Source: Psammoneis japonica (Eukaryota). Taken from it: a stretch of DNA of 48,011 nucleotides. The notes under the pieces were generated by a model. It was not told where the DNA came from, searched no databases, and saw only the letters and a list, made by a program, of their open reading frames with translations. Below, piece after piece: positions 12,936-48,011 of this stretch. A program made the position numbers and the translations under genes. The stretch lies in NCBI GenBank assembly GCA_008632985.1, contig QPGO01000011.1:806001-854011 (forward strand). The letters run 5' to 3'. How positions within the stretch are numbered: position 1 is the stretch's first letter; each line of letters begins with the position of its first letter.

Positions 12936-13090
12936 CTGCGCCAAAAATTGTGCTTCGGAGCCCCTCGCTTAATTCGATGATGGCAGACATGACAGCATCA
13001 AATGTGCATCTTTTTGTGTTGATCCTGAGGGTGCGAAAGCGACATGGTGCAAAACAGCATGTTTGTTGGTGTCGGGTGTCGACATTGTTT

Positions 13091-17388: not shown

Positions 17389-18018
17389 ATGGGAGAAACC
17401 CAAAAAGATGACCAGTGTGAATCAAACCTCTGGAGATGTCCTCTCTTGGCTGTAATTGTTTGTTCTAGTAGAGAAGAGAATATGACCTTGCTTCGCTTTA
17501 TAAGAAGTGTAAGCACATAACATCAAAGGTTGTCAAGAGAACATCGCTCTAGAATGTACCACACAGTAAAGAAAAGTAGTTTGGAGCGCATGGTTGCGAA
17601 ATCCTCGCCGTATGGCGACAGCATTGAGAGGACGAGAAGGAATGGGAGTAGCTTAATCAAACGCGAGAAAGGGATAGATGTGGTGGCTTTCCGACTACGT
17701 TGGTAAGGTTTATGGAGTCTATGTACTAGACTTTTCGTGTATGGTACTGTGATTATGTTTGTCTTCTATTTCTGTTGACGCTTGCTTTGAATGACGAGCT
17801 GTTACTGAGAACAACCACGGCAAGGACTGCTCATCCAATCCAAATACTATTTTCCGAGACGTTTGGTCCCTCCTGTACGGATAATAGAGTGTGCACCAAC
17901 AATGCAATACAGACAAGAGAATGCTTCTGTTTTCAGAGTGTCTGGCCCGCCAACGACTCCAAGCTGCTTCTCGTTCAACCCGTCTACAGATGTTCAACCC
18001 ATCCAGCCCTTTCTCTCA

Positions 18019-18783
18019 TCAATTTAACTCGTACAATGTTTTAATGGCCGCATCAAAGTCTCGACACGCCTTGTCGAGGTCGTTGTTGACCACAATCACA
18101 TCAAAGTTGCCTTCTTGCAGTCCGTATTCGACTTCGGCCTTGGCGTTGGCCGTGCGTCGTTGCAAGCTTTCGGCAGACTCGGTTCCTCGTCGAGACAGTC
18201 GTTCTTGTAAAATTTCCAAGGACGGTGGAGCAATAAAGAGATACTTAGGTTTGAATTCTGGAGACTCTTGTAAGCGCTTGAGTTGCTTGACGCCTTGCAC
18301 ATCAATATCCAACAGACAGTGTTTGCCACCGTCTTGCACATCCCGCAACGAGGACCAACTCGTGCCATAGTAATTGCCGTGCACTTGAGCGTGTTCCAAA
18401 AAGTAACCACCCTCCGTAATTTGAGCTTGCATGGTTTCTTTCGAAGTAAAGTGATAATGAACGCCATGGACTTCGCCTGGCCGGGGATCACGAGTGGTGT
18501 GCGACACTGTAAAGCCAAACCGGTCCATGCCACCAAACTCCGTCATGTACTTTTCGATAATGGTGCCCTTGCCCACACCGCTTGGACCACACACCACCAG
18601 CGGTTGTAATAACGTTGCTTTCTTGCTGTCTTGAAGAGCCTCCATGCTTGCCACAGCACTGCACTGACGAGTCTCGCTGCTGTTGTTGCTGCTGCCACGA
18701 AGGGATCTTCCAGAGAAGAAGGACACGACCACCAAGGGCTGCAGCAACAGCAAAGAGATTTTCAAAGCAATCGTCACTCTCAT
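18019..18783 (-). CDS. GUK1: Guanylate kinase with N-terminal signal/transit-like extension
   Basis: P-loop 'VCGPSGVGKGT', 'VSHTTRDPRPGEVHGVHYHF', 'HGNYYGTS', 'LDIDVQGV', 'RLSRRGTES'. Start chosen at ATG 18783 because a hydrophobic signal-like segment follows. Confidence 0.93.
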   Translation of the reverse strand: MRVTIALKISLLLLQPLVVVSFFSGRSLRGSSNNSSETRQCSAVASMEALQDSKKATLLQPLVVCGPSGVGKGTIIEKYMTEFGGMDRFGFTVSHTTRDPRPGEVHGVHYHFTSKETMQAQITEGGYFLEHAQVHGNYYGTSWSSLRDVQDGGKHCLLDIDVQGVKQLKRLQESPEFKPKYLFIAPPSLEILQERLSRRGTESAESLQRRTANAKAEVEYGLQEGNFDVIVVNNDLDKACRDFDAAIKTLYELN

Positions 18784-19071
18784 TTCGACCTTGAGTATTT
18801 GAGACAGATAGAGAATTGGATCGATGATGAGGACAGAGGCAAAACGCATAGACAGCACCACCACCTCACTTTCTGCTTTGTCATTTCCTCTTGGTGGTGC
18901 CAGCAGTCGCGGGTTTCTGATTCCGACATGTAGAAATGAACGTGGCTTCAGTACTTCACGGAATGACTCGTGACTCAGTCGCGTCTGACGCAGGACGTGG
19001 ATGTCGCGGCTTTCTTGTCGAGTGTCCACACAAGATTGGCGTCACCCTTGGGAGTGGGCGTCACCTACAAC

Positions 19072-28229: not shown

Positions 28230-29431
28230 ATNGTTTCACAACACTGAAAGGCCTTCGTGTAGCCTACGTGATACTTGCCTTTCTTTTTTGTCTCCTTGCT
28301 TTCGTTGGCTTTATATGGCTGTGAAGGTCGCCACTGCTCATAATAATAAAGTGACGAGTGACATGGAATCACCACCGACCGGGCACCGATGCATTTGCGT
28401 CGACTGCGATCAAGATTCTGAATGAGGAATGCGGAGGCCTCTGGAAAGGAGATGCTGTCGGGGGCGATCCACACTACTTTGAAACGGTCGATATTGTCTT
28501 GTCGCACTGTATCAAACCATCGGGTTGGTTAGCCAATTTAACAGAAGGCGTTCCTGTTTCAGACATTACAATCATTTCTATGTGTGGCCAACCTGTTGTT
28601 GGCGCTTCAAAAGGGTCGACCATACTTCGACTTCCAAATAGGGGTCGGTGTGATCAAAGCTACGCACAATGGCTATCCGAACGGAGCGCAAAGATGCCTT
28701 CTTCTGTCCAGGAAAAGGGTATCGTGTTGTTTCTGAAAGACGATCTTAGTGACGCTAGTAGCTATCGACAGGGAGTTTTGAGGATCGATACATGACAACA
28801 TGCTAAGGGTTGCTTCGACAACTGCTGGCTTTGCGTGTGGCATGGAGCCAACAAAGTCGCCACTTTTATCGTTTCCCACTGCTTTGCGATCGAGCCATCA
28901 TGAGTTGGATAAGTTTGTTCAGTTTGATATGAAGGAGTACTCAAGTCAAAACGGCAAATACAACAAAGTCAAACCTGTGAAGCTCCGTTCGTCTCTCCTT
29001 ACAAGAATCTTAGCGATTGGGCATTGTCACTCGGGATAACGTTTGAAAAAGATCTAGTTAGCGTTTGCTATGGTGGAACGTTTGCAGTGTCTTCAAAACA
29101 AATACAAAATGTCAAGGCGGATTTATGGGAAAAGATATCCACGAGTCTGATGCGGGGCGATAACATCCAGAAGGGACACTTTGCCGAGCGCGATTGTGCA
29201 GGCTTGCTTTCTCAGCCACTCAAGGAATACAAATATCAGCATTTCGTCAACACCAGATGGAGAAATGGACACGAGTTCGGTGGTGCCAGGATCGCTTCTC
29301 CGCCAAAAAAGCGTTGTCGACTCTCTCAAGTCATGATGTTTTTCTTAGCTGTGCATAAATCGTCTTTCCCACCTATGATGCAACAACCAGGATCGAATGT
29401 GTATAATCCTTGGTGCAACCAGAGAGTTTAA
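28230..29431 (+). pseudogene. Fragmented DUF3431-like (diatom-expanded) gene with several frameshifts
   Basis: Successive frames carry 'VDIVLSHC', 'RLPNRGRCDQSYAQWL', 'GIVLFLKD', 'GFACG', 'YKNLSDW', 'VCYGGTFAVS' and 'LMRGDNIQKGHFAER'. Shifts occur near 28790 and 28995, and there is an N base at 28232. Confidence 0.65.
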
Positions 29432-29830
29432 AAAGGTAGCCCATGAACTGCGATGGCAAACGCGGCACCCGAGTCCGTGCCAAAACAACAAAAATTTTGA
29501 AGTTGTAGATACATCCGTTGGAGCAATGTTTTCTACTTCGTCGGCTCGCTGTTAACTCGCATCGCGGAGTGCAGTTCTCGCTCAACTGGAACGTCGCCGA
29601 AATGGTCGCAACACCCTACTCGTACATGTACGCGGTTCGTCTAATATCATTAAAGCAAGGTTGCAACGGTCCTCTTTGGTTCACCATGGGAACTGAATCA
29701 CGCAAGACTACTCCAAGAAGTGCTAATACCGTACGAAAATAGATGTTGACAGGTGAAACTGATGGAAATAATCTGAATACGTCTTTTTCTTCCCTAATCG
29801 TCGCTGACTCCCTTGCTTTACACGTAGGCT

Positions 29831-31908
29831 TTAGGGCCCGGTTGAGCAAGTGCCATCGCCAGGAGGTCGAACGTTGACATATCTTGTGCAAGATGAAGAT
29901 GCTCCCTTGCTATCTGTGACAGTGAGTGTCACTGTTCTATTTCCAATGCCATACGGAGGCGGAGGGTCCAGGACATGCGTCAACGTATCACCGTTGGGAT
30001 CAAACGAATCGAAGTCAATCGTCGTCCACACCTTGCAAAGTGGGGAAGGTCGGGATCTTTTGTCCCTGTTCTTGCAGCGCATAACTGGTGGCTTGTTTAC
30101 ATGACAGACACCACGCTTAGGTTGACGAACCGTCACAGTCCTTGTGCAGGTATTTGTGCGGCCTTCACTGTCCGTAGCTGTGAGAGTTACACCGTAACAC
30201 CGACGTTGTAGGGCGGAGGAGGGACTTGCGTCAAGACAACAGGCTTGGAGTCAAAAGATTTGGACCCGTCGTCAATCGTAGTCCAAACATAGCACTTTGA
30301 AGACGATATGGCTTTCTTATCTCGTTCCTTGCAGCGCATTCTTGGTAGCTTTGCCGTCTTGCAGCCAGACACTATGACCAGTAGCTTCTTCTTGGTAACA
30401 GCTCCCTTGCTGTCTTTGGCTTTGAAGAACAGTTTGTATCGCGCATTATCCGTCGGCGTCATATCGAGACGAACAGTTGCTGCATGACCAGATTTGTTTG
30501 TCACCTTCATTCCAACGGGAGCGCCCCAAACTTTAACGGTGGTAGTTTGATCTGGCTCTGGACTGAGGAAGGTTATCACGGCATCAAGGTTTTCACATGA
30601 GGCCAGCTTGATCTTTCCTGACGAGGGAAAGTCAACCGCAGCTGGCGGGGTGTTGCTCTCACCAGAAGACTGGCACCGAAGGGTTGGATAGGGGTACTCG
30701 CTGTTTTGTAGATGGGTCCAAACATTGCTGTCCCAGCTGGAGTATGGCGGATTAGTGGGATCACGAAAGTATTGACTGCTTTCCACGACCTTTACTTCAG
30801 TGTCTCCTGCTTCATATTCTTCATCGCGATAACCTCCAACTGCAGGGTCCATCACGCAGTAGTTACCCTCTAGCAAACTGGAATCATCATAACTGCCAAT
30901 AAATCCACCTACGGCACCATAATCATCAAATATGGTGACCTCACCTGTGGCGAAGCTGCTCTTAATCGAAGAATTATCAGAATATCCAACGAGACCACCG
31001 GCTGCACCACTTCCTTTCACATCACCCAGAACATAGCTATTTGAAATGTAAGTTTCAATTGCGTCTCCCACGAGGCCACCCACGCTCAAACTACCCAAAA
31101 CAGCTAAATCACCAACTACGAAGCAGTTGCGGATGGCTCCGCCCCTGAATCCGCCCCAGAAATAGCCAACCAAACCGCCAAAACTTTTTGAATAGTCATA
31201 CCACGGTTCATAACCGTAATCTGACACAGTGACATTATGCACACTGCATTCTTCAATATCAACACCGTAATCAGCATATCCCACAAGACCGCCAGCTGCG
31301 TCACCGTATACTTCCCCACCGAGGACCTGGCAGCACGTGATATTAACATCATCTGCATATCCAACAAGCCCGCCAGAACGGACATCTCCACCTACGTACG
31401 AATCTCTCACGGTGACATTATGGATAGTTCCACCATACGTATATCCAACGAGCGATCCGAAATAGTTAGGATAGTCGCCGCATCTACCTTGGTCGACGGT
31501 GGTGTTAACGAGGATTAGATTTCGGATCTCGGCATGGTCAGTAACACCAAACAGACCAAAGCCGGCAATGCAAGCTGTGTCCGGTTCAACGATGTGCAAA
31601 TCGCGAATCGTATGCCCTCCACCATCAAACGATCCAGTGAACTCAGTATCTTCATAATCATCATAAGAGAAATCAATGCCAATGGGATGGAACTTATCTC
31701 CAATGACGGCTTGAATGTCATTGACCAGCACATAATTTCTATCGAGTCCATTAGCTTGAACACCCTTCAGGTCATCGTAAGTAGCAATCTTGCAGGGATC
31801 TGTGTTAGGCTTCCCACAATTTGATTGAAACCCCGAGATCGTGGGGAGTACGATGAAACTGCCTACGATGGTACGTAAACGGAAAGTCTTCCAGTATCCT
31901 GTCACCAT
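29831..31908 (-). CDS. Secreted-type GLUG-motif repeat protein with Ig-like and two HYR-like C-terminal modules; 1-nt frameshift near 30192
   Basis: 'FTGSFDGGGHTIRDL', 'GLFG' and about seven 'GGLVGY'-type repeats. After the stop at 30187 the shifted frame continues 'VTLTATDSEGRTNTCTRTVTV' and a second 'PPPPYGIGNRTVTLTVTDSKGASSSC' module, ending at 29831. No introns. Confidence 0.75.
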
Positions 31909-32547: not shown

Positions 32548-33969
32548 TCTCTCGGTCCGTTGGCTGCGCTTCTGTGGGTCATCCGTGTGACAGGTCGACG
32601 TCTGAAATCTAATGGCAACTCTTTTATTACATGCCGGAATGGCGGGTTCATGAACACCTGTCCCTAAACGAAAAACAGGGTTTTTCGAATGTAAAAAAAG
32701 ATGAGCCAGGAACTCATTGTGATGCTCTTTGTTTTTGTTGCAAATGGTCCGTGGGGCGGTTTGTTCGGCGAAGAGAAAACCACACCTTCATCATCTCGTT
32801 TTCGAGGTGTGTGGTCATGTTGGGGAATTTTGGGGTTTTTTACAGTTGCAATTTGACGTCACTGTGGTCGCATGAATCGTTGGGGTGTTCGGGTTTCATA
32901 AAATGGCCGAACACATCTCACCACTTCAGGTGCTTTTGATTCTGACATTGAAGACCGAGCGACTCTGGGTCGCTGTTTTTAAGTCGTTCCCATTGTGGAT
33001 GGCAATGTCGCATGTGAGTGACGAGTCGAGAACAGAAGTGGTGTGTGAGCAATGGTGGATGATGCAAAGTAACCCCAGCAGAGGTGTGCCGATTTTTCCA
33101 CGAGTGCGAAATTTGTTTTGGCAGAGTCCGACAAATGACCGATTGTCGACACTCAACTGCCAGATGAAGTGAGAGCTGACCAGTTCTGATGGCATTGCAT
33201 TGGTCAATTGGGGGGATCATCAGAGCATCTTTGCCAGTGAGTTGCAAACACAAACCCATGTCCACATGTCTTCCGATGCGAATGAGATTCACAAAAAATC
33301 ATCATTTTCGGTGGATCGCAAACACAGTTTTTGCACTGACAACCCTTTTTGGATTTGCAATTCATGGAAATGAATCACAAATAAATCAGGCCTTGGATGC
33401 AATCCACCTTCCAAAATTGCAAACAAAAATTTTAAATTTCTGGCACAAAAAGGATGCAGAAATCCTGCAGCCCTGATCTCCTCAGCAAGTCTCTCGCGTC
33501 AGTTGTCCTGCAGTGTGAAAGCTTGTGGGACCGATTGAGCTCCACAAACTCAGGACAGCATTGCCTTTGAAAAAGTGAATGCTTGTCGTGATGTCTGCTG
33601 AGCTTAAAGTCATTTGAATGAGAACAATGCATTGTAGAATCTTCGTCAACCCTCAACCACCGGACTTGAGCAGCCGCCGAGCCACTGGGAAGAGTTTGTC
33701 AGGACCAATCTGTGTGAACTGCAATGCAAACAGAGGGAGCTGGCTTGAACTGCTCACACCTGCACTGATTTCAAACCACCTCCTGGCCCTGACATCCATT
33801 GAAGCACCGACACACTGACCTCCAGTCTGCCTACTGCAGAACTGCCACCAGCATCACAACCGCCACCTGCCTTCACTCCTCCTGAACCTGCTCCTCCGAC
33901 GATGCTGGTGATGCCAGAACCTCCTCCCAACACTTCTCCAGAGGGAGCTCTTCCACTGCACCACTCAAG

Positions 33970-35800
33970 TTGATCACAAACAAGGGACAGTCACTGTCCA
34001 AAAGGTTTGTGCATGAAGTCTTTTTCACTCCTGTTGACCCAAAAGACGAGCTGCATGGGGCTGCAGCACAGTTGGCATGCTGTCTCGTGACTCTGGACAC
34101 CTGCACAGATTTGCAGACCTGCAACATTGATGATCCCAGGGTTTGTGCAACTGCAAAGAAACAAAAGGACCCTGACACGCCATCCCTGCATGAAGCCATG
34201 TGCAGTCACAAGGCCGATGAATGGATCAAGGCTGTGAAAATCAAGATGAGTGCACTGCTCCACCATCATGCATGGGAGATGGCACCACCAAGGACCAATG
34301 GTGTGAATGTGTCACCAGGTGCATGGGCTCAAGAGACTCCCTGATGGTGCACCCTTGAAGCATGAAGCCCGGTGTTGTGTTTGTGGCAATTTGCAGCCAA
34401 AAACAAGGTGTTGATTTTTTTGAGACCTGTGCACTGGTCATGCAATGGTCATCAACTTGGCTTCTCCTCACAACGGCACTCAAAGAAGGTTGGACCACTC
34501 ATCAAGTTGACTGTGCCACTGCCTTTTGCCAAGCCGACATCTCAAGGAGAAAGTCTGTGTGTGTGGAGCCTCCCAAGGGTTTTCAGCCAAAATCAGGTGC
34601 CGACTTGGCACTGAAATTGTTGAAAGCCCGTGTGGACTCTGCCAGTCTCCCAAGTGCTTCTGTGGAAAGCTGTGTGATGGATTGATCAAATGAGGATGGA
34701 TTCAGTCCACCATTGACCCTCCTTGTCTTTGTTTTAAGTGCATCAGCTGAAGAACTTCAAGCTGAGGCCCAGATTGCCAAATTGGGTGTCTCCAATGATG
34801 AGCAATGCCATGTCTTTGACCTGCATGATGAAGGCAAAGTTGGCAACTTTTTGGGCATCAAGATCCAGAAACTCAAGGACAGCTGATTCCCACACTGACC
34901 CAACCTGGCCTGACAGAAAACTGCAATGGAGCTCCCACTCCTGCACTTCCTGCACCTGTTGGCAGCAATTCTGAAGGCCTGTTGTTCGACAAACCTTGTG
35001 ACTGTCACTCCATGGTTGGCATGTTGTTGATGCATCTAGCATCCAACAGTCATCTGGACATTGCCTGCACTGCCCACCAAGTTGCTCAGTTCTCCTTTGC
35101 TCCAAGCCTCCTGTGCTGTTGCTGTCAAGTGCGCTCTTTGGCACTTGAAGGACACTGCTGACAAGGGCTTCATCCCAGCACCCACCATGGATCATCGGCC
35201 AGATTGTTGTGTTTGATGCTGAGTTTACAGGACTCTTCAGTGTTGAAGATGGACAAAACCCCACTTCTGTCAATTCACACACCGGTTGTGCTGCTCATCA
35301 TGCCAGATGTCCCGTCATCTGGTTGTCCAAGCTGCAGACCCTGGCACCAGCACTTTCTGTGATGTCTCACCCTCCTTTGCAAGATCTTGAAGGAAATCAA
35401 CATGCGCATGTCTTCATGCAGCTGGACACTCACAACGAGGCAGCTGCCCACTCCAAAGCCTTCCTGTCGGCTGATGACAGAACCGATGCCTCCCCCATCA
35501 ATGCTGTCAACCTGCCAGCATCTGTTGTGCATGAAGACAATGCTGCTTGCCTCCAATTTGCTTTTGTGGCCTAAATTGTCCCCACAAATCAAGCACATTG
35601 CACTCCACACCGCTGGTTTCGCATGAGGGTTGAGGCTTTGCAGATCAAGATTGAGCCTGTCAGCTCTGCTGCACAGCTTGCCAACCAGTTTGCTGAAGGA
35701 TTGACTGCTGATCTGTTCTGAATTGGTCGTAAAGCCCTCATGGGCTGGCGGCCATTTTTCCTCCTCATCTCAGCAGTTGAGAGGGAGAGAGTTGTCACGA
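33970..35800 (+). mobile_element. Ty1/copia LTR-retrotransposon relic (RT + RNase H, polypurine tract, start of 3' LTR)
   Basis: Frameshifted motifs 'DPDTPSLHEAM', 'QGVDFFETCALVMQWSS', 'QVDCATAF', 'VCVEPPKGF', 'CPVIWLSKLQT', 'VHEDNAAC', 'IKHIAL', 'QLANQF..GL...RKALMGW'. PPT gagagggagagag at 35779-35791, then TGTCAC at 35793. Confidence 0.88.
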
Positions 35801-37011
35801 GTCAAATGCCAAGTCTGGTTCATGGATGATGCTTCCGGTCATCAATCTCTGCTTCCAGAAGAAATGTCCATTGAGCCTTCTGGCATCAGAGTGACACACA
35901 TGACCATCAGGTCAAAATGTCATCTCCGGTCCGGTCAACCATGAGATCTTCTCACAATTTGCATCTTTGGCACACCTCATTGTCTTTTGCTGAATTGTCA
36001 TCCTCTGTGCTGCACTGCACAACCTCAAGAGAGGCATCTCCCTTTTGCTGTCTGTTTGGTCAATGCATCCTGAGTCATGACACATGTCTTGAGAAGGAAA
36101 TGGTGAAAAGTGTTGCAGTGCGCACTTCTTGCCATGGCAGACCTGCTGCATTCAAAAGATTGTTCTTTCTTTTCACCTCACATGAAGTCAAAGCACAAGG
36201 CACTGGCTGAGTCAAATCAGCATGAAATGTCACAAAGCAGCCAGGCAGATTGACTTAAATTTGCTGGATTCAGTGTCACTGTTTGTGGGCAGATTGTTTT
36301 AGACTGGGAAGCAAAAGTGGCCCCAAAGTGAGGGTGCAAAACTTTGCACTCAAAAGTTGCTGAAATCACCCACAAAAGCATGAACACATTTGTGCTGAAC
36401 AAAAAGAGAAATGGCACCCCTGCAGACCAAACAAAATGCTGCTGTTCCAGTGGCACCATTTTTGCAGTCACAATGCAAAAATTTGACACTGCCACACAGG
36501 CAGTCCTCATTTTCATTCTCCACACCATTTGTCACATTGGTCATTTGCTTCTCTGTGCTGTTTTGTCATGACAAAACCCAGGACATGGGTGGTGCTGCGA
36601 TGTGAGACTCAACAAATTTTGAGCTTTTCTTGCACTTGGCAGAAGACAGGGGAGCCTCAGAGAGACAATGTGAAAATGTTCCCCATGTGCTTCACCTGAT
36701 GCTGTGAGCAAATCCACAACTTCAAAAGGTTGCCATGCCTCTGTGTGAAAGCTGTTGCAGCCCACTCTGCAGAAATTTTTCAAGAGTGCCTCAGCAGCCA
36801 TCACAGCTGATTTTTGCACAAGGAAAACCCCAGGGTTGTGCAGGGGTGCACTTGGCATCACACAAGATGATGGTGCAAGTTGGAGCCAACAACTTTGCAA
36901 AAAATCAGCTCAGTGCACCACCCAATCAAATGCACCTTAGCTTGCTTGTGCTGATCAAGAAACAATGCCTTTGAACAAACAGCACCCAAGCTCTTCAGGA
37001 ACATTGTTCAT

Positions 37012-37108
37012 TGCCGGTGTTGCATGATCTCTCTCACAAATGTCAGGGACATTGTTCAATGACCTCTCTCACAAATGTTGAGGAACACTCATGGCACCTT
37101 TGTCCAGT
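37012..37108 (+). repeat. Dispersed repeat copy B (TA-free form)
   Basis: Homologous to 32444-32547 but contains no TA dinucleotide. Confidence 0.85.
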
Positions 37109-39216
37109 CAACCATTTTTGTCATGAATCATCACATCTGCATGTCACCACAAGACTCTTTTTTTGTCATCTCCAAACTCTTGTTTGTTTGATTGAAGCTC
37201 ACTTTTCTGATCAATCACAACCACAATTGCAACATTCACTGTCACAATTTCTTTTCAGACCTCTGTCATTGACCACGTCCATCTCACTCAGCACTGCATC
37301 CACCCTGTCATGGCTGGAGACTTTTCAGGGAGAGGCTGTTGTGCCCTGACCTGCCTGTGTGGCCCCTGCCTTTGCTTGTCAAGCCTGGCTGCTTGTTGGC
37401 ATGGGCCTGCTCTGTGCATGACAGTCAGACACCTGCAGGCAGCTGAGCAGATCTCTCTGAGATCTGCCTCTCTTGCTCTTTCTTGTTGGCATGCATGCGG
37501 TTGATGCTGCTGGCTTGCAGGGGTCTGCAAGCTCTGTTGGCTGCTTTGAACAACACTTTTCAAGCAAACTCAGAAAACAAACAAGCTTCACTGCCACTCT
37601 TCCTTTTTTCTTGTTGCCAAGGCACCCTGCTGCCATGACATCAGGGGGGGGGCACAAAGCAGACAAGGGTGCTGGCTGGAAAAACCTTCTTCTTCAGAGC
37701 AGCAGCTGGTGGTGGCAATGGCCTTGCCTGTGTCAGCTCCACAAACTCTGCAAGGCCCAGCATGCTGAAAAGGAAGAAGAAGGAGCCCACACACCTTGTG
37801 GCACTGGCATGCTGTTGGCAGCTCTAGACTAGATGACAGCCTCAATGAAAGCCAATGACCTCTTTGCACCTGCTGTGCCCCACAGAGGGCAGTGCTGCAG
37901 TGCCAGCACCACCACACACTCAAGTGCACTGTGCCCTTGACTCTTTTGTTTGAAATCAACAAGCTTCTTTGGTGACTTCAAAGCTCGACAATTGACTTGA
38001 GACATCAAAAGATCTTTTCAACAAGCCAGGCAAGGGCTGGGACTTGTTTGCGCAGAAGCTTGCAAACAAGAAACGTGTTTCACGGTGTCTCAAGAGTTGG
38101 GGTGGCAAGGCTCACATTCATTTGTCTTGTGTGCCAAATTTGGTGACAGACAAACAAACAGGCAGGCTGCAAGGATTGCTGTTGATGACAGCTGCAGGGC
38201 TGTTTCCAGGTTGGCAGATTTTGAACAAAACAAAAGGGTTTTCACTTTGAGTGTGTTCAGGGAGTGACTTGGCAAAGGTGCTGGCACACATGACACACAT
38301 CTTTGCATGTGCAGTCTTTGCACACTTGGCATGTCTTTGAGTGTGCTGTCAGATGTGTGCTGCAATCTCCTCTGGTGATGCCATGGTTCACTTTCAGAAG
38401 TTGACATGCAGCTCATGTCAACGCACATCTGCTGAGCAGAGTGAGTGCAAGATGCAGCATGTGGGCATGCAAGAAACTGTGTGCACCCCTGCACCTTGCA
38501 CTTTCTGTGTCCCAAGGCACCAGCTGACATCAAAAGACACTCTCTGAGACATTTGCCAGCTGTCAATGGCTGTGGTGCATGCTGTGGAGCAGCTCCAAGA
38601 GTCTGATGTTGCTGACCCACAAGCCAATCACCAAACCCAGTTGGCAGCAAGCAGAGTGACTCCAGATGCAAGAAGATGCTGAGTTTGGCAGCACTGGGTC
38701 ATCTCATCTGTTGGCTTGCCAAGTCATTTTGGGGCAAGACCAAGCAAGAGTTCCCCTGGCTCTCCTCAATGATTTTTTATGATGTCAACCAATGTGCAGC
38801 AGCCAAGTGACAAATGGCATTGTTGACATTGAGAGCACCAAAAAGGCAGCAGATGCTGCTCTTGTTGCATGGAGCCCACCCTGCTCTAGAAAAGACTGTG
38901 CAGGAGTTGATGCAGAAGCTCTCTGACTTACAAAAATGATGACAACAATGTGATGGTGCTGGACTTCCCATTGCTGGCAAGCATTGGCTCCAAGATTTTG
39001 TCCAAGTTCTTGAGTGGGCTCTTCCACCAACCAATCCACAAGCTGCTCTGTGCTGCACTCAAAATGATTGTCCTCAGGGTGCAAGTGTTGCCACCCAAAG
39101 GACCTGGCTGAGGTCAAGTTGTGCTGGCTGTCATCTAGCTGGCTCATTGACCAGCAGCAAAAAAATTCCTTGGGGACAAGGGGTGACAACCAGCACCCAT
39201 TCCAAGCTCCCCCCAA

Positions 39217-39316
39217 ACCCATGACAAACCCAGCTGGTGTGAATGTCTTCATCACCAGGCCTGTTCCAGCTCCAGGTGCTCCGCGTGGGTTCGATTCCCA
39301 TCATTGGCCCATTTTT
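39217..39316 (+). pseudogene. tRNA-like relic (intact T-arm/B-box and oligo-T; degenerate 5' half)
   Basis: T-arm gtggg-TTCGATT-cccat at 39285-39301, a 7-nt 3' acceptor strand cattggc, then TTTTT at 39312-39316. The 5' acccatg pairs only 5/7, cagctggt resembles a D-loop, and no anticodon arm was resolved. Confidence 0.35.
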
Positions 39317-39572
39317 AGGTTTGGCGCAAATAACTTTTTCAAAATCCGTTTTTCGCCAAATCGAGAAGGGCAAGTGTACACTTTACATGTGTTTTCGGGT
39401 GTACACTCACCTTTCGATTTTCGAAATGATCAAAAATGAAGGAGTCAATTGTGCCAAAAATGTGATTTTCGGCTGGTGTCCCATTCCACGTGAAAAATGC
39501 TCGTGATCACTCACTTTTTCATTTTTCGGAGCTCGTGTGTTTGGTCTTCTTCAACTCAACTGACGTCCAAAC

Positions 39573-42500
39573 ATGCCTCATTCCTACAGACACAATGCAG
39601 TTAATTTGATTGAGCGTGCCAAAAAAATGTGTCCTCTCGACTTGCCATCCGTCTCATCCACCAGCCCTCTCGATGCGCACTTTCAATCAAATTTCCAGTG
39701 CATCGTGGGCAACAAGAGGAAGAAGCAAAATGGAGTTGGCCGTCGACACAAGTCAGGGACTGGCAACAGCAAAAACAAGAAGCCTCACAGTGAACTTGAA
39801 ACACACTCCACGGTCTCCGACCATGTCGTTGCTGCAGCTGAAGCAGCTGCAGCCACTCCCTTCAATCCGAGCAACCCGAGCTCTGCTGCCTCCATCGCTC
39901 CCTCCGTTGCTCCCACCAACCTGGCTGCTTTCAACCCGAACCCCTCCACAGAACACACCTCACTCATTGTCCAGTGTTGTCCTTGCCAAGACCGCCAGGC
40001 CCCTCCCAAATGCACACTGCAGGAGCGGCCGCCACTCCCTCCAACCCTGACTCTGACAATGCCGCCGTCACTCCCTCCGTTGCTCCCGCCGACCTGGCTG
40101 CTTTCAACCCGAACCCCTCCAAGGAACACCCCACTCATTGTCCAGGGTCGTCCTTGCCAAGACCGCCAGGCTCCTCCCAAACGCAAACTGCAGGAGCGGC
40201 CGCCACTCCCTCCAACCCTGACTCTGACAATGCCGCCGTCACTCCCTCTGTCGCTTCGGCCAACCCAACTGCTGTCAACCTCACCGCCTCCCAAGGTTGC
40301 CCCACTTTTAATCCTCATGCATTTGAAGCAACCCACAAAGATCCCCAACAGGCACTTTGTCGTGCAGCGGTCAAAATGAGAGAAGGAGTGTTGTCTTGCG
40401 CCGCCACTCAAGAACAACAAATCTGTGCGTTTGTGCGTGCTTTGCATTTTCCCGAAATGGCCCCATTTCTTCAGGCTTGTAATTTGACATTGCCGAAAAC
40501 AAATGCTGCGGCTTTGCAAATTGCCAAACAGTTGGGCAAAATGTGGGCACGTGCCAACGACACCAGCAATGGTCAACACCTCACCGATGACAAAAAATCG
40601 TTTGTCCGTGCTCTTGCAACTGGAGTCTCCGGTTCACCAGAAAAATCTGCTGAAGAGGAAAAGTTGTCTTCCCATGACTGCGCCAAGGCACTTGGCCTGA
40701 GATGGAGCACTGTTTGTTGCCAAATGAAGAAGGGAAAGATTGCCAGAGAGGCACTGCTTTCAAACACTGACGATGTCATGTGGTCTTCAGTGCAACCCCG
40801 TCGGCGTCCTCACAAAGTTTCCCCTGAGATCCGAAAGGCATTTGTGCACTGGTTGTCAAATCATCCCGACACAGCGCAGTCTCCCAACACACAAGACATG
40901 ATTCTCATTAAAGATGAAGATGGAAACAAGAAACGAGTGAACAAATGGTTGCGCAATGTGTCCATGCGTGAGCTGCACAACGACATGTTGAAGCCTGTGT
41001 CTGTTGGCGGATTCGAACATGCACGTGATGCCAATGGCAAGACCCTCATTGGTGGCACGATGTTTCAATTTTTGATTCCCACGCAGTGTCGAAAAATGAG
41101 CGCCAGTCAATGCAGCATGTGTCAATGCAGCGATTGCACCAACGCCAATTTTGCACAAGATGCATTGAACAGGTTTCGAAGGAAGCTTTTAAAAGAGATG
41201 GAGGTGGAGCAAAATCGGTTGAAGCTTGCGAGCGAGGATCCTGAGAACTTGGAGAACCATGACAGTGCCCTTGGCAAATTGGAGGAAACAGTGCGTGTCT
41301 GTCAAGAGGAAGCGTTTGGCCCCAACGGCCATCACCTTCATCCTAAAGCCCGAGATGCAGTTGCAACCATCACTTGTGGCAATGTCAATGGTCAGGATCA
41401 TCCTCATTGGAAATGCGTTTTGGGTGAATGCGAGCATTGCCCATCCCATCCAACTCCATTGTTGGAACAGAATGAAAGTCCCAGTGCGCCCCAAGTTTTG
41501 TTTCAACGTCACTTGACTGTAAAAAGTTGTTCCAAGCATGGTGTGCACATGGAAGCATGTCCTGTTTGTGAGGCAGATCCAGATGGGAACAAGGACGCAA
41601 AGGTGAAACGCAGGACCTTGTTGACAAGGTTCCGAAAACCAGTCGGTGTCTTTGCAAAAGAGCACTGCATTCCAAGTTTAGAGAAGCTCCACTGCCACCT
41701 TCCCCACGTGGTCATTCTTGGGAAAAATCATTGCATGGAAATGCGTTGCAAAGCATTTGAGTCAACACCCAACAGCCTGTTCACGTCTCATGACTGCTCC
41801 AAGCATCAGAAGGCAGAGTTCAACAAACAAATCAGGGTGACCATTGTGGCAACAACCAAACATTGTCAATCGAAGGAAGAGTTTGCAATGCAATGGTTGA
41901 CAACGAGCTTCAGAAAACACATCATGTGCATCTCTCTGACTCTTCCAAGCAAGATGCCACCACCACCAATGCTCACTTGGAAAAGTTTGTCACCTGGTTA
42001 AAAAACCGCAACCTGTGTGAGGCGTGGCTTGTGATTTGGGATCACACTGATGGTTGTGCTAAACAATGCCAATGTGCTTTGGCACTGTGCTTGTTGTCTG
42101 TCTTTGCGCACAAATGCAACATTGTGTTTGACCATGCCATTGGAGCACCTGGACATGGCAAAGGAGAGGTTGATGGCATTGGAGCCTGCGTTGGATCACT
42201 CACACATTGAGAAATGCAGTCCACAACTGTTGCAGGAGTCAATGACAAGGATGGGAAAATTAGACCTGAAGCTTTGGTCATGGATGACAACAGTGTTGTA
42301 GCCACACACAGTCATGCAAAGGAATGTCACAAAATGCTCACAAAGAACAAGAATGCTTTCGGCGCAGTTGGTGACAGAAATCATGCCAAGAGGGAATCCC
42401 TTCGAAAGTTGACACAAAGGGTGTGTCATCTGCAGGAAGCTGACAAAGTTCTTGGCTCTTCAATCAAAGTCAAGTTGATTGGATTGGTGCAAGTGCACAC

Positions 42501-43371
42501 ACGCCATTGTGGCATTGGAGCCTTGCACCATTTCTGATTTGAACCTCTTTTCCCCATTGGTTGGGTTGCGATGTGAAGAATTCCTTGTGCTTGTGAAGCC
42601 TGCCTGGATCAGCTGAAATGGCCTTGGGTTAAAAATGTCAAGCCAACAGAGCAGCCACGACATGCAGGTGGCAACCGAGCTTGCAAACTGTGGCCCATCT
42701 TTGAGGGACTGAACGATTGGCAAGTGTGCCAGGTGATTCAAACAGATGAGAGTGACGCTGACGAGGTGCAGTTGGTTCACAAATCTGTGTTGGACTTCCT
42801 GACTGAGGAAATGGCCAAGGAAATTGTTCCAAACAGCCACGTTGCATTGTCTTGTGAATCTGAGGAGGGACTCTATCTGCGGCAATGGGATGAACTCCCC
42901 CACAAAGCACAGGAGGACAAGGTTTGGAAAGAGTTTGACCCACCCATGACTGTTGAGGCCGGTGAATGGGTTTGCAAGGGAACGCATCTTAACCCTGTTC
43001 CATGGGCCAGAGGATGGCACACTCCTGGTGATGCTGAGGAATGTGAGACAAGAGTGTTGCTCAAGCAAATTGCAACTGCCAACATTGAGCTCAATGAACC
43101 ATCAGCCAATCTGGAACTGCCAAGTGCGTGCAACAGGAATGAGGCTTCACTTCTTCATCCACGTCATTTGAGTGATGACGAGCATGAAGGAATTCTGGAT
43201 GCCATCCGACAGCGGGAGGCAATGGATTGTTTTGAGGACTGTTTGGATGAGGTGGAGGAACAAGACATCGAAGCTGGTGAGTGGGGGGGAGAGAATGACG
43301 ACATGGAAGACACTGTGGAGGATGATGAGAGCACGGCAGGGGACAGTGACAGTGACAATTCGGACAAATAA
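39573..43371 (+). mobile_element. Decayed Sola2-like DDD transposase gene (frameshifts ~39960 and ~41834; in-frame TGA at 42208, 42535 and ~42574)
   Basis: Catalytic-type motifs 'HDCSKH....FNKQI(Q)GDH', 'WDHTDGCAKQCQC' and 'GAPGHGKGEVDGIG' resemble the Sola2 pattern DF.ENY..EIQS.HW / SDG...QY / HGKG..DG.G. Cys-rich segments and 'RIPCACEAC' are present. A putative terminal region lies at ~39317-39560. Confidence 0.7.
39898..40265 (+). repeat. Coding tandem repeat, ~171-173-bp unit x2 plus partial
   Basis: Units start at 39898, 40071 and 40242. Several differences are CG vs TG/CA, and 2 extra nt in unit 1 cause the frameshift. Confidence 0.9.
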
Positions 43372-43394
43372 AATGGCAATGTTGTGCAACTAGA

Positions 43395-46300
43395 TCAACC
43401 ATCCAACACAAAAGCTTTCCTTTTTGCGTGCAACTTCTGCTGCACCGCCCCAGGAAGTTCGAACTGGTGCACCATGAACACTTGTTGCAGACGCTTTTTC
43501 GCCACGTATTTCACCTCATGTTCCTTGTTCCCAAGACACCAATTGAAACACTCAATGTCCTTTGCTGGCAATGCAAAAGGGTGGTTGGAATCAAAGATCC
43601 ATCCACGGTGCAAGGCAATGCAATGGTTGTTCACAAGACGGCACAAAGTTGTGAAGTCATCATTGCAGGTCGTCACGTCAAATTCACCACCTGCTGCAAG
43701 GGAAATCGTTTGATCCACACCGCAAAACTTCATGTTTGAGTTCTTGGGTGGGAATTTTCCCTTCAAACGACCGTTCAACATGTTCTTTGCAAACAACGTG
43801 CGCTTGTTGTCAGTGTCAGCACAGTTGGCAGATGTTTGAATGTGAGAAGCAATGTAGTCTCTCATTTCCACATCGCCAGCACAATCAAGAACACTGGCCA
43901 GGGAGGAAAAAACACATGTGTCGTTTTGTCCTTGCAGGAATTTCACGGGTGGACTGCTCGTCGGCAAGTTGCTGTTCAATGGCATCAACACGTTTCCTTC
44001 CAGCAAGGAGCAACAACCATCTGATGGCTTCAATTCTTTCAAATCTTTCCACACATCTGGAAACCAAAACTTAAAATTGCACTCAGCCCAATCCAGGGTC
44101 ACACACATGGGACGGTTCCCCTCCAAGCTGCAGCCAATGAAATCAGCTCCCCGCCCAACAGGTGGAAGTTTTTGAATCTCCACTTCAGCCAATCTCTTCA
44201 GTTTGGCAATCTGTGGTGGGTTGCAAATCGATTCCACCTTGTTCTTAATCTCGTCCCTGCATTTTTGATTGAGTTGCTGGGGAACATTTGGTTTGTGTTT
44301 GGCATGCACAATGAGGCCCGCACACATGTTCATGGGATGGCCGTTCATTTCATTGTGCCACACGTCAAACCATGGTTCCCACAACATGACGCCCTTGTTT
44401 TTCCCTTCAAAGCAACCAAACAAGTGAGGAACGGCTCCTTTGGAATCGCCAGGACGCTGACGCCTGCTGTTCCATTTGCTTGGATCAATCCAAATGAGTT
44501 TTTTAGCCTGCAACATCACTTGAGCATCTTCGCACTCACACTCGAGTCGATCCCTTTCTTCTTGGTGTCGCTGGGCTTTGGTCAACCGACGCCATGAAGT
44601 GTCTCCTTTTGCCCTTGGTTTCGGGACAGAGCTGTGAAGGCCAATGAGATCCTCATCCTTGTGCACTCCAGTTGTTAATTTCAAGGTCTCATGCGAACGT
44701 CTGCGTCCAGCGTCTCCCACTGTCTCCCACTTCTCTTCTGCAGCCGGGGCTTTCTTCCTCTTGTCTCTTGCAGCCTTGGCTTTCTCCCTCTTCTCTTGAG
44801 CTGCCTTGGCTTTCTCCCTCTTCTCTTCTGCAGCCGCAGAAACTTCTTCCTTGCATTCATCGTCCTCCTCGTCCTCAGTTGCCTCTGGATCTTGCTCCTC
44901 CTGGATTTCATCTTGCACACCGTCATCTTCCTCCTCTTCCTCCTCTGGCTCAGTCGATTGATCCATCGCCTCATCTTCCTCCTCTTCCTCAGCCGATTGA
45001 TCCATGGCCCCATCTTCCTCCTCTTCCTCAGCCAATTGATCCATGGCCCCATCTTCCTCCTCCTGGTTTTTGTCTCGCAGTTGCAACCTTGCAGTGCCAG
45101 CCTCGGCCTTTTGCAGGTCATCCGTCTCTTCAGTGCCCTCCTTCCCCTCTTCCTCCTCCTCCTCCTCCACCTCTTCCTTCAACACTGCATCACGGGCACC
45201 AGCGTGATGCATGCAACGATGGTGACGAATCCTTCTGCAAAACTTGCACCATGCAAGTCCAGGAGCTGCCTTGCACCAATCAGCAAGGTGAGCAAGTGGC
45301 TCTTTGAAACAATCCTTCCTGCTTGGTCTGGCAGGGAAGTGAACTTCAACCATTTGTTTGTCTTCGGTGACGGCCTCCACTAACTTGGAGTGTCGTTGCG
45401 GCTTGAAAGGCCTGCACCACTGGTCCGGTGGACAAGTGCTGCCTCTGCATTCACCACCAGAGGTAATCCGCAACACATGGTTGTGCCACCAACCTGCAAT
45501 GATGTCAAACAAGGCCTCAGATGGCAGTCTGTCATCGGGGTCGAATGGCCCAAATGAGAAAATCCTCCAGCAGCCACTCGTGCAACTCATGAGCACTTTG
45601 CATGGTGCGTTGGTGGGAAGTTCGGCAATGTGGGGATCTTCCTGCATGTCATCATCCGACTGTTCAAGCTTCTCCCTTTTGCAATGCTCGTCATGAAAAA
45701 CACAATTGTTGCTGTGATCCACAATGGGCTTCTTCAACTTCTCACAGCTGATGCGTGGTTTTCGATGCAGCTTTTCATCCACCTGCTTCCTCTGAGCGAT
45801 TTCGTTTGGAACAGAGTGATGTTGGTTGCAGATTGAACCCCAGTGCTGTTTTGCGGATAGAACGGGAGATCTTGTTTCACATTTGAACTTGATGTCCAAC
45901 CCCTTCAAAGCCAACATTTCAAAATTGTTCTTCACCCCCTTTGGAGACTTAATTCGCCACCAACTTTGAAACACGACCTCGCCAAAAGGCAGCCACACAT
46001 GCATCTTTAAATCTTGGGTCAGCTTTTCATCATCGTGCGATTCTAGGTTTTGAATGTTGACCAAAGATGCCAAGTGGAATCGGCACTTGGCAATGCATGA
46101 ATGATCAGCAATGCATCCTCCTTCAACAAGCGGCTCCTCCCAACAGTCTTCATCCTTGCGGATCTCTGTTGCAACGTTCTGATGCTCGGTGCTGGAACGA
46201 GGCAATGCCAAAACAATTGCAGAGCTCATTGGAGTAATCCTCTCCTTTGCACACAGGGCAACAGTGTTGCCTTGATCATTCATCATGAGATCATCCCAGT

Positions 46301-47114
46301 CCCAGTGCTTGCGGACGTCCGCCAGATCCAAACGATCACTCATGGTGTCCGTGATGTCCTCAAAACCCATCACTCCCATGCAACGAGACTTCAAAGTCTT
46401 CTGACAATGAAGACATGCATCCATCTTCTTGACAACACCACAGCAAATGGCTTGGGCAAGTCCAATCAAAAAAGGACATGCACCTCGACTTGACGGTGTG
46501 ATCGATTGACTCTCATCGCCCGTCCCAGCTGACACAACTGGAGACTCTGTCACACGGACGTAATCAACAAGCAGGCCAATGTTTGTCTTGACACGGCACA
46601 TCAAAACAGCAGCAATGTTTTGCTTGTCCTTCACGGCACCCCTCATCGACATTCCTGATGGCACCACAACCAACATCAAGAGGTGCTGGTTCTTGTCCTT
46701 GATGCACTGGTTCAGTTGCGGTCGATTCTCGGAGTTAAATTTTTCACAAAACCAATCGACAACAGTGTTGCGGAACATGTTCCATGTTTTGGCACTGTTG
46801 AACCCATCCAAACCATTCTTGTGATGAAGAACATGAAAGAGAGGGCTCATCTTCTTTGTTCCACGATCTTCTGTGGTCAAGATGCTCAAATCTACAAGAC
46901 CTTGAGGGCACTCAAGGGGATCAACTGCATCTTGGAGAGGCACAGTGTGCCAAGTTTTGGCTTTGCCCTGCGGTGGGCAATGTTCCGCGAGTGCCTTGAC
47001 GCAACGCTGGACGCAAAAGGAAACCTTCAACGTGCTGGAAGAGTCATCGTCAGCTTGAGGAGAACTGCCACCAACGGGACGCTGCTGGGAGGCTACTTTG
47101 GCCAACGTGTCCAT
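43395..47114 (-). CDS. Large transposon-associated ORF: GNAT-like N-terminal region, acidic repeat linker, C-terminal papain-like (C39-type) cysteine-protease-like domain; probably hypermutated
   Basis: Uninterrupted 1331-codon frame, likely start MDTLAK at 47114. GNAT-like 'LLVDYVRV...GACPFLIGLAQ...CLHC...MGF'; protease-like 'QGQNDTCVFSSLAS...NHCIAL..WIFDSN'; EEEEEDGAMDQ and EKREKAKAA repeats. Only 4 Tyr in the whole frame. Confidence 0.55.
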   Translation of the reverse strand: MDTLAKVASQQRPVGGSSPQADDDSSSTLKVSFCVQRCVKALAEHCPPQGKAKTWHTVPLQDAVDPLECPQGLVDLSILTTEDRGTKKMSPLFHVLHHKNGLDGFNSAKTWNMFRNTVVDWFCEKFNSENRPQLNQCIKDKNQHLLMLVVVPSGMSMRGAVKDKQNIAAVLMCRVKTNIGLLVDYVRVTESPVVSAGTGDESQSITPSSRGACPFLIGLAQAICCGVVKKMDACLHCQKTLKSRCMGVMGFEDITDTMSDRLDLADVRKHWDWDDLMMNDQGNTVALCAKERITPMSSAIVLALPRSSTEHQNVATEIRKDEDCWEEPLVEGGCIADHSCIAKCRFHLASLVNIQNLESHDDEKLTQDLKMHVWLPFGEVVFQSWWRIKSPKGVKNNFEMLALKGLDIKFKCETRSPVLSAKQHWGSICNQHHSVPNEIAQRKQVDEKLHRKPRISCEKLKKPIVDHSNNCVFHDEHCKREKLEQSDDDMQEDPHIAELPTNAPCKVLMSCTSGCWRIFSFGPFDPDDRLPSEALFDIIAGWWHNHVLRITSGGECRGSTCPPDQWCRPFKPQRHSKLVEAVTEDKQMVEVHFPARPSRKDCFKEPLAHLADWCKAAPGLAWCKFCRRIRHHRCMHHAGARDAVLKEEVEEEEEEEGKEGTEETDDLQKAEAGTARLQLRDKNQEEEDGAMDQLAEEEEEDGAMDQSAEEEEEDEAMDQSTEPEEEEEEDDGVQDEIQEEQDPEATEDEEDDECKEEVSAAAEEKREKAKAAQEKREKAKAARDKRKKAPAAEEKWETVGDAGRRRSHETLKLTTGVHKDEDLIGLHSSVPKPRAKGDTSWRRLTKAQRHQEERDRLECECEDAQVMLQAKKLIWIDPSKWNSRRQRPGDSKGAVPHLFGCFEGKNKGVMLWEPWFDVWHNEMNGHPMNMCAGLIVHAKHKPNVPQQLNQKCRDEIKNKVESICNPPQIAKLKRLAEVEIQKLPPVGRGADFIGCSLEGNRPMCVTLDWAECNFKFWFPDVWKDLKELKPSDGCCSLLEGNVLMPLNSNLPTSSPPVKFLQGQNDTCVFSSLASVLDCAGDVEMRDYIASHIQTSANCADTDNKRTLFAKNMLNGRLKGKFPPKNSNMKFCGVDQTISLAAGGEFDVTTCNDDFTTLCRLVNNHCIALHRGWIFDSNHPFALPAKDIECFNWCLGNKEHEVKYVAKKRLQQVFMVHQFELPGAVQQKLHAKRKAFVLDG

Positions 47115-47148
47115 GGCGAATGCACTGCTTTTGCACTCCTGTTTGTAT

Positions 47149-47378
47149 GACAAATGCACTCCAGAGAGGGGGCCAACGTCAGCCACCGCGAAAGTGATGC
47201 AGATGAACAGAGGCAGCCTCTGAGGCAGTTCCAGATGCTGAAAACAAAGCATCAAACAGCAAGCTGCACTCCCGCTTGTGCGACAAATGCACTCCAGAGA
47301 GGGGGGCAATGTCAGTTGCCGCGAAAGTGATGCGGATGAACAGAGGCAGCCTCCAAGGCAGTTCCAGATGCTGAAAAG
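47149..47378. repeat. Direct duplication (~96 bp, 133-bp period) upstream of the large ORF
   Basis: gacaaatgcactccagagaggggg...ccagatgctgaaaa occurs at 47149 and 47282. At one site the copies read TG vs CA (cctctgagg / cctccaagg). Confidence 0.9.
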
Positions 47379-48011
47379 TGCAAACAGCAAGCGTCACAGT
47401 GAAAACAAACCAAGACAAGTTTGTTCCAGTAGAAACTGTCACTCGGAGAACGCTCGGGCGAATGCTTGAGTTTTGCAGAAGTTCCGAAGGCCCTGGTGCA
47501 AAACAACCATAAAACGATGCATGAGAAGCAACCAGAAAAATACAGGTGCGCGGTGACGCGTGAAAAAAAACATGATAGAATGACTTGCCAAATTCGAAAT
47601 GAGAGAACACAAAGAGATGGTGTCATCCGCAATGACAGCAAACTCTTTAGAGCCACAATCGCACTGCGACAACAATGATGTGACTTTGAAATGAAAGGAA
47701 CAGGCGGTTCCATACAACCACAAGGGCAAAGAGGGGGTTGTGGAGTGGTGACAGCGGTGTGCTGCGTCATGGCTGGTGTGTGTTGGGTGGACGGCACATG
47801 TTCGTAGAAGTCAGTGTTGTTCTGCGCATCGCCAGAAAAACATTAAATGCCAACTGACATGATTCTTCCTGTGACGCATCATGCACCTTGGTTGTTGCAC
47901 ATGAGCGTTGACATCACAAATGTGTTGCGTCATTGGAACAATCAATGTTTGCACAAAGCCAAAAAGTGCGAGCTCTGCGGGTGGAGACAAAAATGTCTGG
48001 CACTGAAAACT

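Follow-up and report, generated by a model that had tools for sequence, protein, structure and literature searches.

Near-saturated footprint of a probable TpA-directed hypermutation in transposon DNA of the diatom Psammoneis japonica

What has removed almost every TA dinucleotide (TpA) from the transposons in one stretch of the Psammoneis japonica genome, when the host genes between them keep theirs? The stretch, here called the window, comprises 48,011 nt of this diatom (contig QPGO01000011.1, positions 806,001–854,011 of the forward strand) and holds four unrelated blocks of mobile or repeated sequence, namely a copia-like retroelement relic, a DNA transposon and two further relics, all depleted of TA. 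We consider it likely, from the composition and alignments set out below, that transposon DNA of the nuclear genome has been struck by a mutational process of the host, one that is specific to 5'-TA-3' and converts A:T to G:C there. Four things are direct observations: the signature, the direction of change, the context rule and the restriction to transposable-element (TE) DNA. An earlier, sequence-only reading of the window had already proposed an A:T-to-G:C change at TpA confined to transposon DNA; the fate of 14 of 16 conserved tyrosine columns, the balance of dinucleotide losses and gains, the sharp block edges and the existence of relatives with normal TA all bear this out.

TA loss ends at the borders of transposon DNA

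Dinucleotide observed/expected ratios (o/e) were computed for each of 48 1-kb windows, and edges were refined at 200-bp resolution. TA o/e was 0.02–0.17 in 19/19 of the 1-kb windows covering 11001–15000 and 33001–48000, and 0.35–0.95 in the remaining 29. The 19 TA-poor windows had a CG o/e of 0.04–0.70 and a mean o/e of TG and CA of 1.44–1.96, compared with 1.00–1.38 for the latter in the other 29. Pooled, the TE blocks (19,409 bp) retain 93 TA where 780 would be expected at host density (Poisson P = 2e-214), a density of 4.8 per kb, compared with 40.2 per kb for the intervening host genes. The edges, near 10.7 kb, 15.2 kb and 32.7 kb, are sharp, with the transition lying within ~200–400 bp of normal host DNA.

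These counts agree with those made earlier from the letters alone (22 TA in 1–600, and 44 in the 8,452 bp of 39560–48011, that is, 5.2 per kb). The extent given then, 32700–48011, was correct in its left edge near 32.7 kb but missed the second TA-poor block at ~10.8–15.2 kb. Neighbouring host genes are normal, as had been stated: ten host open reading frames (ORFs; 4,155 codons) contain 2.62% Tyr, and Pfam-matched host ORFs lie in 1-kb windows with a TA o/e of 0.35–0.95. Within host DNA, the 1-kb windows of 16001–19000 have a rather low TA o/e (0.36–0.53), raised TG/CA (1.31–1.38) and, in 17001–18000, a CG o/e of 0.69; either ordinary variation or a faint or ancient trace of the TpA process could account for this.

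The TE features are listed below in window coordinates, with a dot where no strand applies. Copy number was gauged from run X1, the contigs of which were built from exact 31-letter words and have a single-copy depth of ~55.

10800–15200 (.): block A, a TA-poor repeat or TE relic between host genes; 24 TA in 4.4 kb.
12203–12651 (.): diverged tandem repeat in block A; period ~168 bp, 69.5% identity, 11 CA/TG disagreements.
32700–36100 (+): degenerate copia-like long-terminal-repeat (LTR) retroelement relic; RVT_2 match, TA o/e 0.02–0.09, CG o/e 0.16–0.43.
36100–39250 (.): old relic; 9 TA and 10 CG over 3,150 bp; run X1 shows part of it as single-copy.
39300–48011 (.): DNA transposon copy, cut by the window end; TA o/e 0.05–0.17, CG o/e 0.31–0.70.
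39842–43371 (+): transposase pseudogene; frameshift near 41836, in-frame TGA at 42208, 42535 and 42574.
43395–47390 (−): ORF2 of the DNA transposon; 1331 amino acids, open; 4 Tyr (0.3%), Cys 4.9%, His 3.6%.

Relative to host DNA, the TE blocks have lost 35.4 TA and 30.5 CG per kb and have gained 60.1 TG + CA per kb; every other dinucleotide shifts by at most 13 per kb, and AA, AT, AC and AG show no depletion comparable to that of TA. Because the combined loss of TA and CG is approximately matched by the gain of TG and CA, the TE sequence looks as if both had been turned into TG/CA through transitions. TG and CA are nearly equal in each block (408/412 at 39.3–43.4 kb, 350/326 in the copia relic and 364/375 in the third block), and both strands are thus marked about equally. 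Editing of sense RNA, which would mark one strand only, was rejected on this balance and on the near parity of the coding outcomes (8 Cys, 6 His; see below).

The sequence-only reading called the process repeat-targeted, a description that the copy-number estimates do not support. Although the DNA transposon family reaches ~40–55 copy-equivalents at ≥80% likeness (summed depth 1,916–3,200 over 39.5–48 kb versus ~55) and the copia relic ~5–15 (279–854 versus ~55), the stretches at 36.2–36.9 kb and 37.5–38.8 kb are single or low copy at the same likeness, yet fully TA-depleted.

Conserved tyrosines read cysteine or histidine

The direction of change can be read from the transposase, for which a representative protein library yielded 560 homologues. 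Searches with full-length relatives (tblastn) map it in two frames with the shift near 41836, and two of the three in-frame TGA codons align with a conserved Arg. We aligned the read-through protein (X at stops) with 17 relatives of at least 900 amino acids, which gave 249 columns conserved at ≥60%, 162 of them identical in the window copy. Of its 16 conserved Tyr columns, 8 read Cys (TGT/TGC), 6 His (CAT/CAC), 1 Leu and only 1 Tyr, whereas conserved Trp (6/6), Cys (16/16), His (6/6) and Gln (6/6) are all retained. Arg is kept in 11/24 conserved columns, and 9 of the 13 changed ones read His (4), Gln (2), Cys (1) or TGA (2). A second comparison, over the 81 Tyr positions of three intact homologues, finds 3 Tyr, 19 Cys and 27 His in the window copy, against 49 Tyr, 1 Cys and 4 His in a relative with normal TA (L004). 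As columns that are Tyr in the homologues read Cys or His here, the ancestral codons were TAY, which the window copy now carries as TGY or CAY.

Three remarks made from the letters alone fit this direction. The transposase frame was said to be without Tyr, and the stop-to-stop frame 39842–41998 (719 amino acids) indeed has none. The 1331-residue ORF has 4 Tyr as stated, or 0.3% against the 2.62% of the host ORFs; and the change of KQY to KQC in the transposase is visible in the tblastn alignment. For the copia relic, the motifs ETC, QVDC and VCVE are present as described in the frame starting at 33003; their normal forms presumably carry Tyr (ETY, QVDY, VYVE).

Under the genetic code, a change of TA to TG or CA cannot make a stop from a sense codon; only TAA to TGA yields a stop, from a codon that already was one. 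The long open frames of these elements are therefore a by-product of the change and not evidence of function. The ORF2 frame, for example, is free of internal stops, of which the two alternative frames contain 50 and 67.

The target is T-A-B and TTAA is spared

The few remaining TA are not a random sample. TTAA accounts for 24/93 of the residual TA in the TE blocks and 25/1,119 of those in host DNA (odds ratio 15, Fisher P = 1.3e-15), and it is kept in each of five sub-blocks (6, 3, 1, 7 and 7 sites). Normalized for length, TTAA stands at 1.38 times its host density and the other 15 contexts at 0.02–0.25; ATAT is reduced ~50-fold. An additive model, which gives both adenines of a TA their own loss rate according to the base that comes next, reproduces all 16 context counts with fitted values of rate × time of 0.04 for a following A, 1.00 for G, 1.54 for C and 2.39 for T. 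The target is hence 5'-T-A-B or, equivalently, V-T-A on the other strand. This rule, with the sparing of TTAA, is a new feature of the present analysis. Dependence on the next base is expected from the specificity of an enzyme and not from selection against TA as such; the exemption of TTAA could reflect either enzyme specificity or a protecting modification.

The loss of CG follows a different course. CG o/e varies by block, from 0.04–0.07 at 36–39 kb to 0.31–0.70 at 39–48 kb, whereas TA depletion is uniform, and where about half of CG survives at least 90% of susceptible TA is gone. The two losses are therefore the work of two processes with different rates, of which TA loss is faster than CpG decay in TE DNA.

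Related transposases elsewhere mostly keep their TA

Is the composition simply that of the transposase family? The sequence-only reading had named this as a check, which we ran on 30 loci encoding transposase relatives in metagenome contigs from JGI/ENA. TA o/e was a normal 0.49–0.70 in 26/30, and Tyr content among the 45 homologues listed was mostly ~1.8%–3.9% (full range 0–4.4%), so the family as a whole is not TA-poor. Three loci (L009, L013 and L020, from sediment and other metagenomes) have a TA o/e of 0.14–0.20 with low CG and high TG/CA, and a fourth (L018, from a microbial-mat metagenome) has a TA o/e of 0.39. At Tyr positions of the intact homologues, L018 reads 16 Tyr, 7 Cys and 18 His of 73, and L009 reads 1 Tyr, 3 Cys and 4 His of 21; L018, being half depleted, may represent an intermediate stage. 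These four are no closer to the window copy (26–33% identity) than the relatives with normal TA are. Different transposase lineages, in other organisms and assemblies, have therefore undergone the same TA loss.

Change in place or inherited composition?

Internal duplications hold a record of whether TA was lost at this locus or beforehand, and the evidence is mixed. Copies of the tandem repeat at 12203–12651 disagree as CA versus TG at 11 places, compared with 0–1 for each of seven other double-transition classes, which is what independent change of TA (or CG) to TG or CA after duplication predicts. The repeat at 47132–47377 adds two CA/TG pairs and one TA/TG pair. A further tandem duplication, of 179 bp (83% identity), lies at 39838–40296, within the N-terminal region of the transposase frame, which is rich in Pro and Ala.

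Several observations weigh against the TpA process or against its action in place. By our own estimate up to ~4 of the 11 CA/TG discordances at 12203–12651 could derive from ancestral CG. The copies of the 179-bp duplication differ by one CA/TG pair against nine CG-related differences, for which reason the duplication probably arose after the TA loss. A comparison of the window with the other copies represented in run X1 (40/1,654 variant places, of which we took the 15 best-supported window-private differences, a sample that is weak either way) found TA in the other copies at 0/15 such places in 39.3–48 kb; five of the 15 are CG in the others and TG/CA in the window, and three are the reverse. 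Among the X1 contigs, 831/3,710 are at least 99% alike. Much of the TA loss may thus predate amplification of the family and have been inherited at this locus, and the family was probably amplified, at least in part, after the loss. Beyond the locus, TTAA is not spared in the three metagenomic loci with strong depletion (3 TTAA of 50 TA). Finally, run X1, the platform of which is unrecorded, may be the source sample of the assembly.

The alternative that fares best takes TA-poverty to be a standing property of the element lineages, acquired through selection against TA (for example, to escape a nuclease or a silencing pathway directed at TA or UA) or through amplification of a mutated master copy, so that the composition at the locus is inherited. 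The apparent absence of TA from the other copies, the similarity of the X1 contigs, the ~40–55 copy-equivalents of the element and an ORF2 still open over 1331 codons are all in keeping with it. We nevertheless find it unlikely. The window copy of the transposase is non-functional, with 15/16 conserved Tyr replaced, a frameshift and three in-frame TGA codons, and the open frame of ORF2 is no sign of selection given that TA to TG/CA makes no stop from a sense codon. The depletion is common to four unrelated blocks, selection against TA as such does not predict the next-base rule, and the CA/TG discordance between tandem copies points to change in place. Even if true, this alternative would still require a TA-directed pressure from the host.

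Chemistry and a possible mechanism

For a host process acting at TpA, we infer that the chemistry would be deamination of adenine to inosine by an ADAT/TadA-like enzyme working on DNA, and that targeting would be by silent chromatin or small RNAs. An adenine changed on one strand would produce TG and an adenine changed on the other CA, at approximately equal frequency. Activity would be best with T or C after the adenine, lower with G and close to nil with A, such that TTAA survives. Decay of methylated CpG would run alongside, more slowly in TE DNA, and would also feed TG and CA. The process would end within a few hundred bases of the adjoining genes. Proteins would be inactivated through the replacement of Tyr by Cys or His and the loss of ATA, TTA, CTA and GTA codons; with no stop codons made by the change, long open frames would persist in dead elements.

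The same process could have another chemistry, in which a TET/JBP-type enzyme oxidizes the T of TpA to 5-hydroxymethyluracil or 5-formyluracil, pairing with G and leading to T→C. The signature is symmetrical between strands and T→C is A→G on the opposite strand, so the damaged base cannot be assigned; the context rule is equally well written as V-T-A with T-T-A spared. 5-Formyluracil mispairs with G, and dinoflagellate 5-hydroxymethyluracil favours TpA, which would support this chemistry. We rate it as improbable, in view of the sole experimental precedent, which proposes an ADAT2-like deaminase, itself a candidate only (Mettrop et al., bioRxiv 10.64898/2026.01.13.699255).

Patch repair by an error-prone, Pol-eta-like polymerase (A→G at WA), offered in the sequence-only reading as an alternative mechanism, and GC-biased gene conversion in heterochromatin would each yield A:T→G:C, but both are very hard to reconcile with the counts. 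A WA motif would lower AA and raise AG; instead AA rises from 75.6 per kb in host DNA to 83.0 in TE DNA, and AG falls from 61.0 to 56.1. Biased gene conversion is specific neither for TpA nor for the next base, and would not leave TTAA intact in DNA that has lost ATAT ~50-fold.

A sequencing or assembly artefact, such as a modified base miscalled in repeats, draws some support from the unrecorded platforms of the assembly and of run X1 and from the possibly shared source sample, but has next to no probability, given that X1 contigs of 682, 1,179 and 1,188 bp at a depth of ~55 reproduce 36.1–39.2 kb with 0, 1 and 5 other letters, that the signature recurs in four contigs from other metagenome assemblies, that the changes obey codon logic (Tyr to Cys/His; Arg to His, Gln, Cys or stop) and that Illumina reads gave the same changes in Bigelowiella natans, as described in the preprint cited above.

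Runs X2 and X3 contain next to nothing of the TE part. At host sites in 28634–30000, X1 contigs differ from the assembly at many places (in one instance, 12 other letters and 26 gaps over 569 bp); X1 hence probably represents a haplotype or strain other than that of the assembly there.

Comparison with known hypermutation systems

The sequence-only reading allowed that such a process might be unreported. It is not: the preprint on the chlorarachniophyte B. natans uses mutation accumulation to demonstrate the same hypermutation, TpA→TpG/CpA, in viral and other foreign DNA integrated into the genome (Mettrop et al., bioRxiv 10.64898/2026.01.13.699255). According to its main text, 15 mutation-accumulation lines yielded 302 nuclear mutations, 231 of them in two viral inserts; 230 of these 231 were A→G or T→C, all at TpA. 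The rate was ~6e-7 per site per generation (about 1e-7 to 1e-6), and the process was active in some lines only. The same text reports 124 clusters of TpA-poor, CpA + TpG-rich windows, enrichment of reverse transcriptase (RT) and DDE domains among TpA-poor coding sequences, and an effect on a single-copy viral insert, so that repeat-targeting gains no support there either. It proposes an ADAT2-like protein as the candidate enzyme and notes that ADAR and tRNA adenosine deaminases prefer a 5' U before the target A.

When the cut-offs given in that preprint were applied, 16/48 of our 1-kb windows passed, grouped in four uninterrupted series of 4, 6, 3 and 3, and at the level of sequence the locus qualifies on every count as a case of B. 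natans-type TpA hypermutation. As in B. natans, going by the published main text, A:T changes to G:C at TpA only with both TG and CA as outcomes, the change is confined to foreign or mobile DNA beside normal host sequence, and RT and DDE elements are among the targets. By analogy, the two may well be one process. There are also differences. The host here is a diatom, a stramenopile, and B. natans is a rhizarian. The targets here are transposons. TA o/e is near saturation here (0.02–0.17), compared with 0.45 in the active nucleocytoplasmic large DNA virus (NCLDV) insert of B. natans, the virophage insert of which is undepleted. CpG decay is superimposed here. The T-A-B rule with TTAA spared is seen here, and the main text of the preprint contains neither 'TTAA' nor 'trinucleotide'. 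De novo events were seen in the B. natans lines, whereas the process in P. japonica is known from its footprint.

Repeat-induced point mutation (RIP) of fungi offers a parallel, as a genome defence that leaves permanent, dinucleotide-context transition hypermutation in transposon DNA with the genes beside it normal. As described for ascomycetes, however, RIP changes C to T mainly at CpA, raises TpA and AT, and requires duplicated sequence in the sexual phase. We rejected it, as the direction here is the opposite: TpA is reduced 8-fold and CpA increased, and GC stays level or gains slightly (0.491 in TE blocks versus 0.478 in host DNA). Methylated-CpG decay resembles the CG half of the pattern, with CG→TG/CA (o/e 0.04–0.70) and Arg→His/Gln/Cys/stop at 9/13 changed Arg columns, but accounts for that half only and cannot remove TA. 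The sequence-only reading was thus right that neither RIP nor 5mCpG decay explains the TA loss, but understated the parallel depletion of CG. A looser likeness may exist to deaminase-driven hypermutation as defence, as in the hyperediting of viral and retroelement nucleic acids by ADAR and APOBEC in animals, and to the adenine base editors derived from TadA. Unlike in ADAR editing of sense RNA, both strands are marked here and DNA transposons are affected besides a retroelement; ADARs are, moreover, described as confined to animals.

A search for TpA-depleted repeats and the TpA→TpG/CpA signature in diatoms, which the sequence-only reading had called for, found no report in the literature covered, most subscription journals lying outside it, and returned the B. 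natans preprint only; one apparent occurrence of 'TpA' in a Phaeodactylum paper proved to be the word 'Tpase'. New here is a TpA hypermutation footprint in a diatom, close to saturation; the kind of process is already known from B. natans.

The elements and the host genes between them

The copia assignment of the element at 33–36 kb, first made from the letters alone, is confirmed by a match to RVT_2 (PF07727) at 34359–34682 (E = 4.1e-10; 40.1 bits versus a cut-off of 31.6). Apart from RVT_2, neither another copia domain nor an LTR was recovered from the relic, and a word-indexed protein search, which is weak evidence, found no relatives of the RT fragment among longer proteins. Pfam assigned no family to the ORFs of the relic at 36.1–39.25 kb, nor, at E ≤ 0.01, to any of the 13 ORFs of at least 120 amino acids in block A. 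At the right edge of block A, a 72-bp unit occurs twice (94% identity) at 15010–15156.

Loose contig ends of run X1 cluster at 39258–39305, marking the left end of the DNA transposon. Its transposase family has the consensus motifs DGC.KQYR and APGHGK..D; Pfam gave no match for the window transposase frames nor for nine of their homologues, a cluster look-up of seven homologues returned neither names nor taxa, and the Sola2 label attached to it earlier is presumptive. ORF2 has long acidic repeats and a C-terminal part bearing Cys and His. It found no relatives in Pfam or in the word-indexed protein search and no match in the 30 related metagenomic loci, and for its C-terminal third an Atlas look-up returned only unnamed clusters at ≤0.90.

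The DNA between the TA-poor blocks encodes, by Pfam, Mon2, prefoldin, HIRA, guanylate kinase, SpoU and TRM13 methyltransferases and PAP2. An Atlas look-up of the TRM13 gene returned 'Eukaryota' and nothing narrower. Where the closest relatives of the guanylate kinase carry a name, they are diatoms, among them Cylindrotheca, Fistulifera, Fragilaria, Asterionellopsis, Staurosira and Attheya. The HIRA/CAF1B-type histone chaperone gene (8437–10309, minus strand) appears as two ORFs (9161–10309 and 8437–9126), presumably split by an intron, and ends ~400 bp from block A; we claim no link to hypermutation. Among the 12 host ORFs of the window scanned (2/12 matching no family at all), Pfam gave no match to a deaminase family. 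The window contains a single N, at position 28232.

Implications

So far, one experimental report describes A:T→G:C hypermutation at TpA that would defend against mobile DNA; going by its main text, it concerns a single chlorarachniophyte and proposes an enzyme without identifying it. The T-A-B rule with TTAA spared supplies an in vitro criterion for any candidate deaminase or thymine oxidase, and the locus supplies a ranking of rates, with TA loss ahead of CpG decay in the same DNA. In such genomes a long open frame may belong to a dead gene, and 'orphan' proteins that are free of Tyr and rich in Cys and His are likely to be the products of hypermutated TE genes, which homology searches miss. 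TA-rich transgenes in such hosts might be at risk of mutation.

A saturated footprint in a diatom, together with the four environmental contigs, suggests that the process is widespread among ecologically dominant algae. As a tentative and still doubtful extension, diatoms and chlorarachniophytes, and perhaps the SAR group more widely, might share a DNA adenine-editing defence directed at T-A-B that outpaces methyl-CpG decay in ridding silenced mobile DNA of TA and kills proteins through Tyr→Cys/His, with no stops created. Because the ~40–55 copies of the DNA transposon seem to share the TA-free state, TA-free lineages would still be amplifying, and such a defence could be driving an arms race with them.

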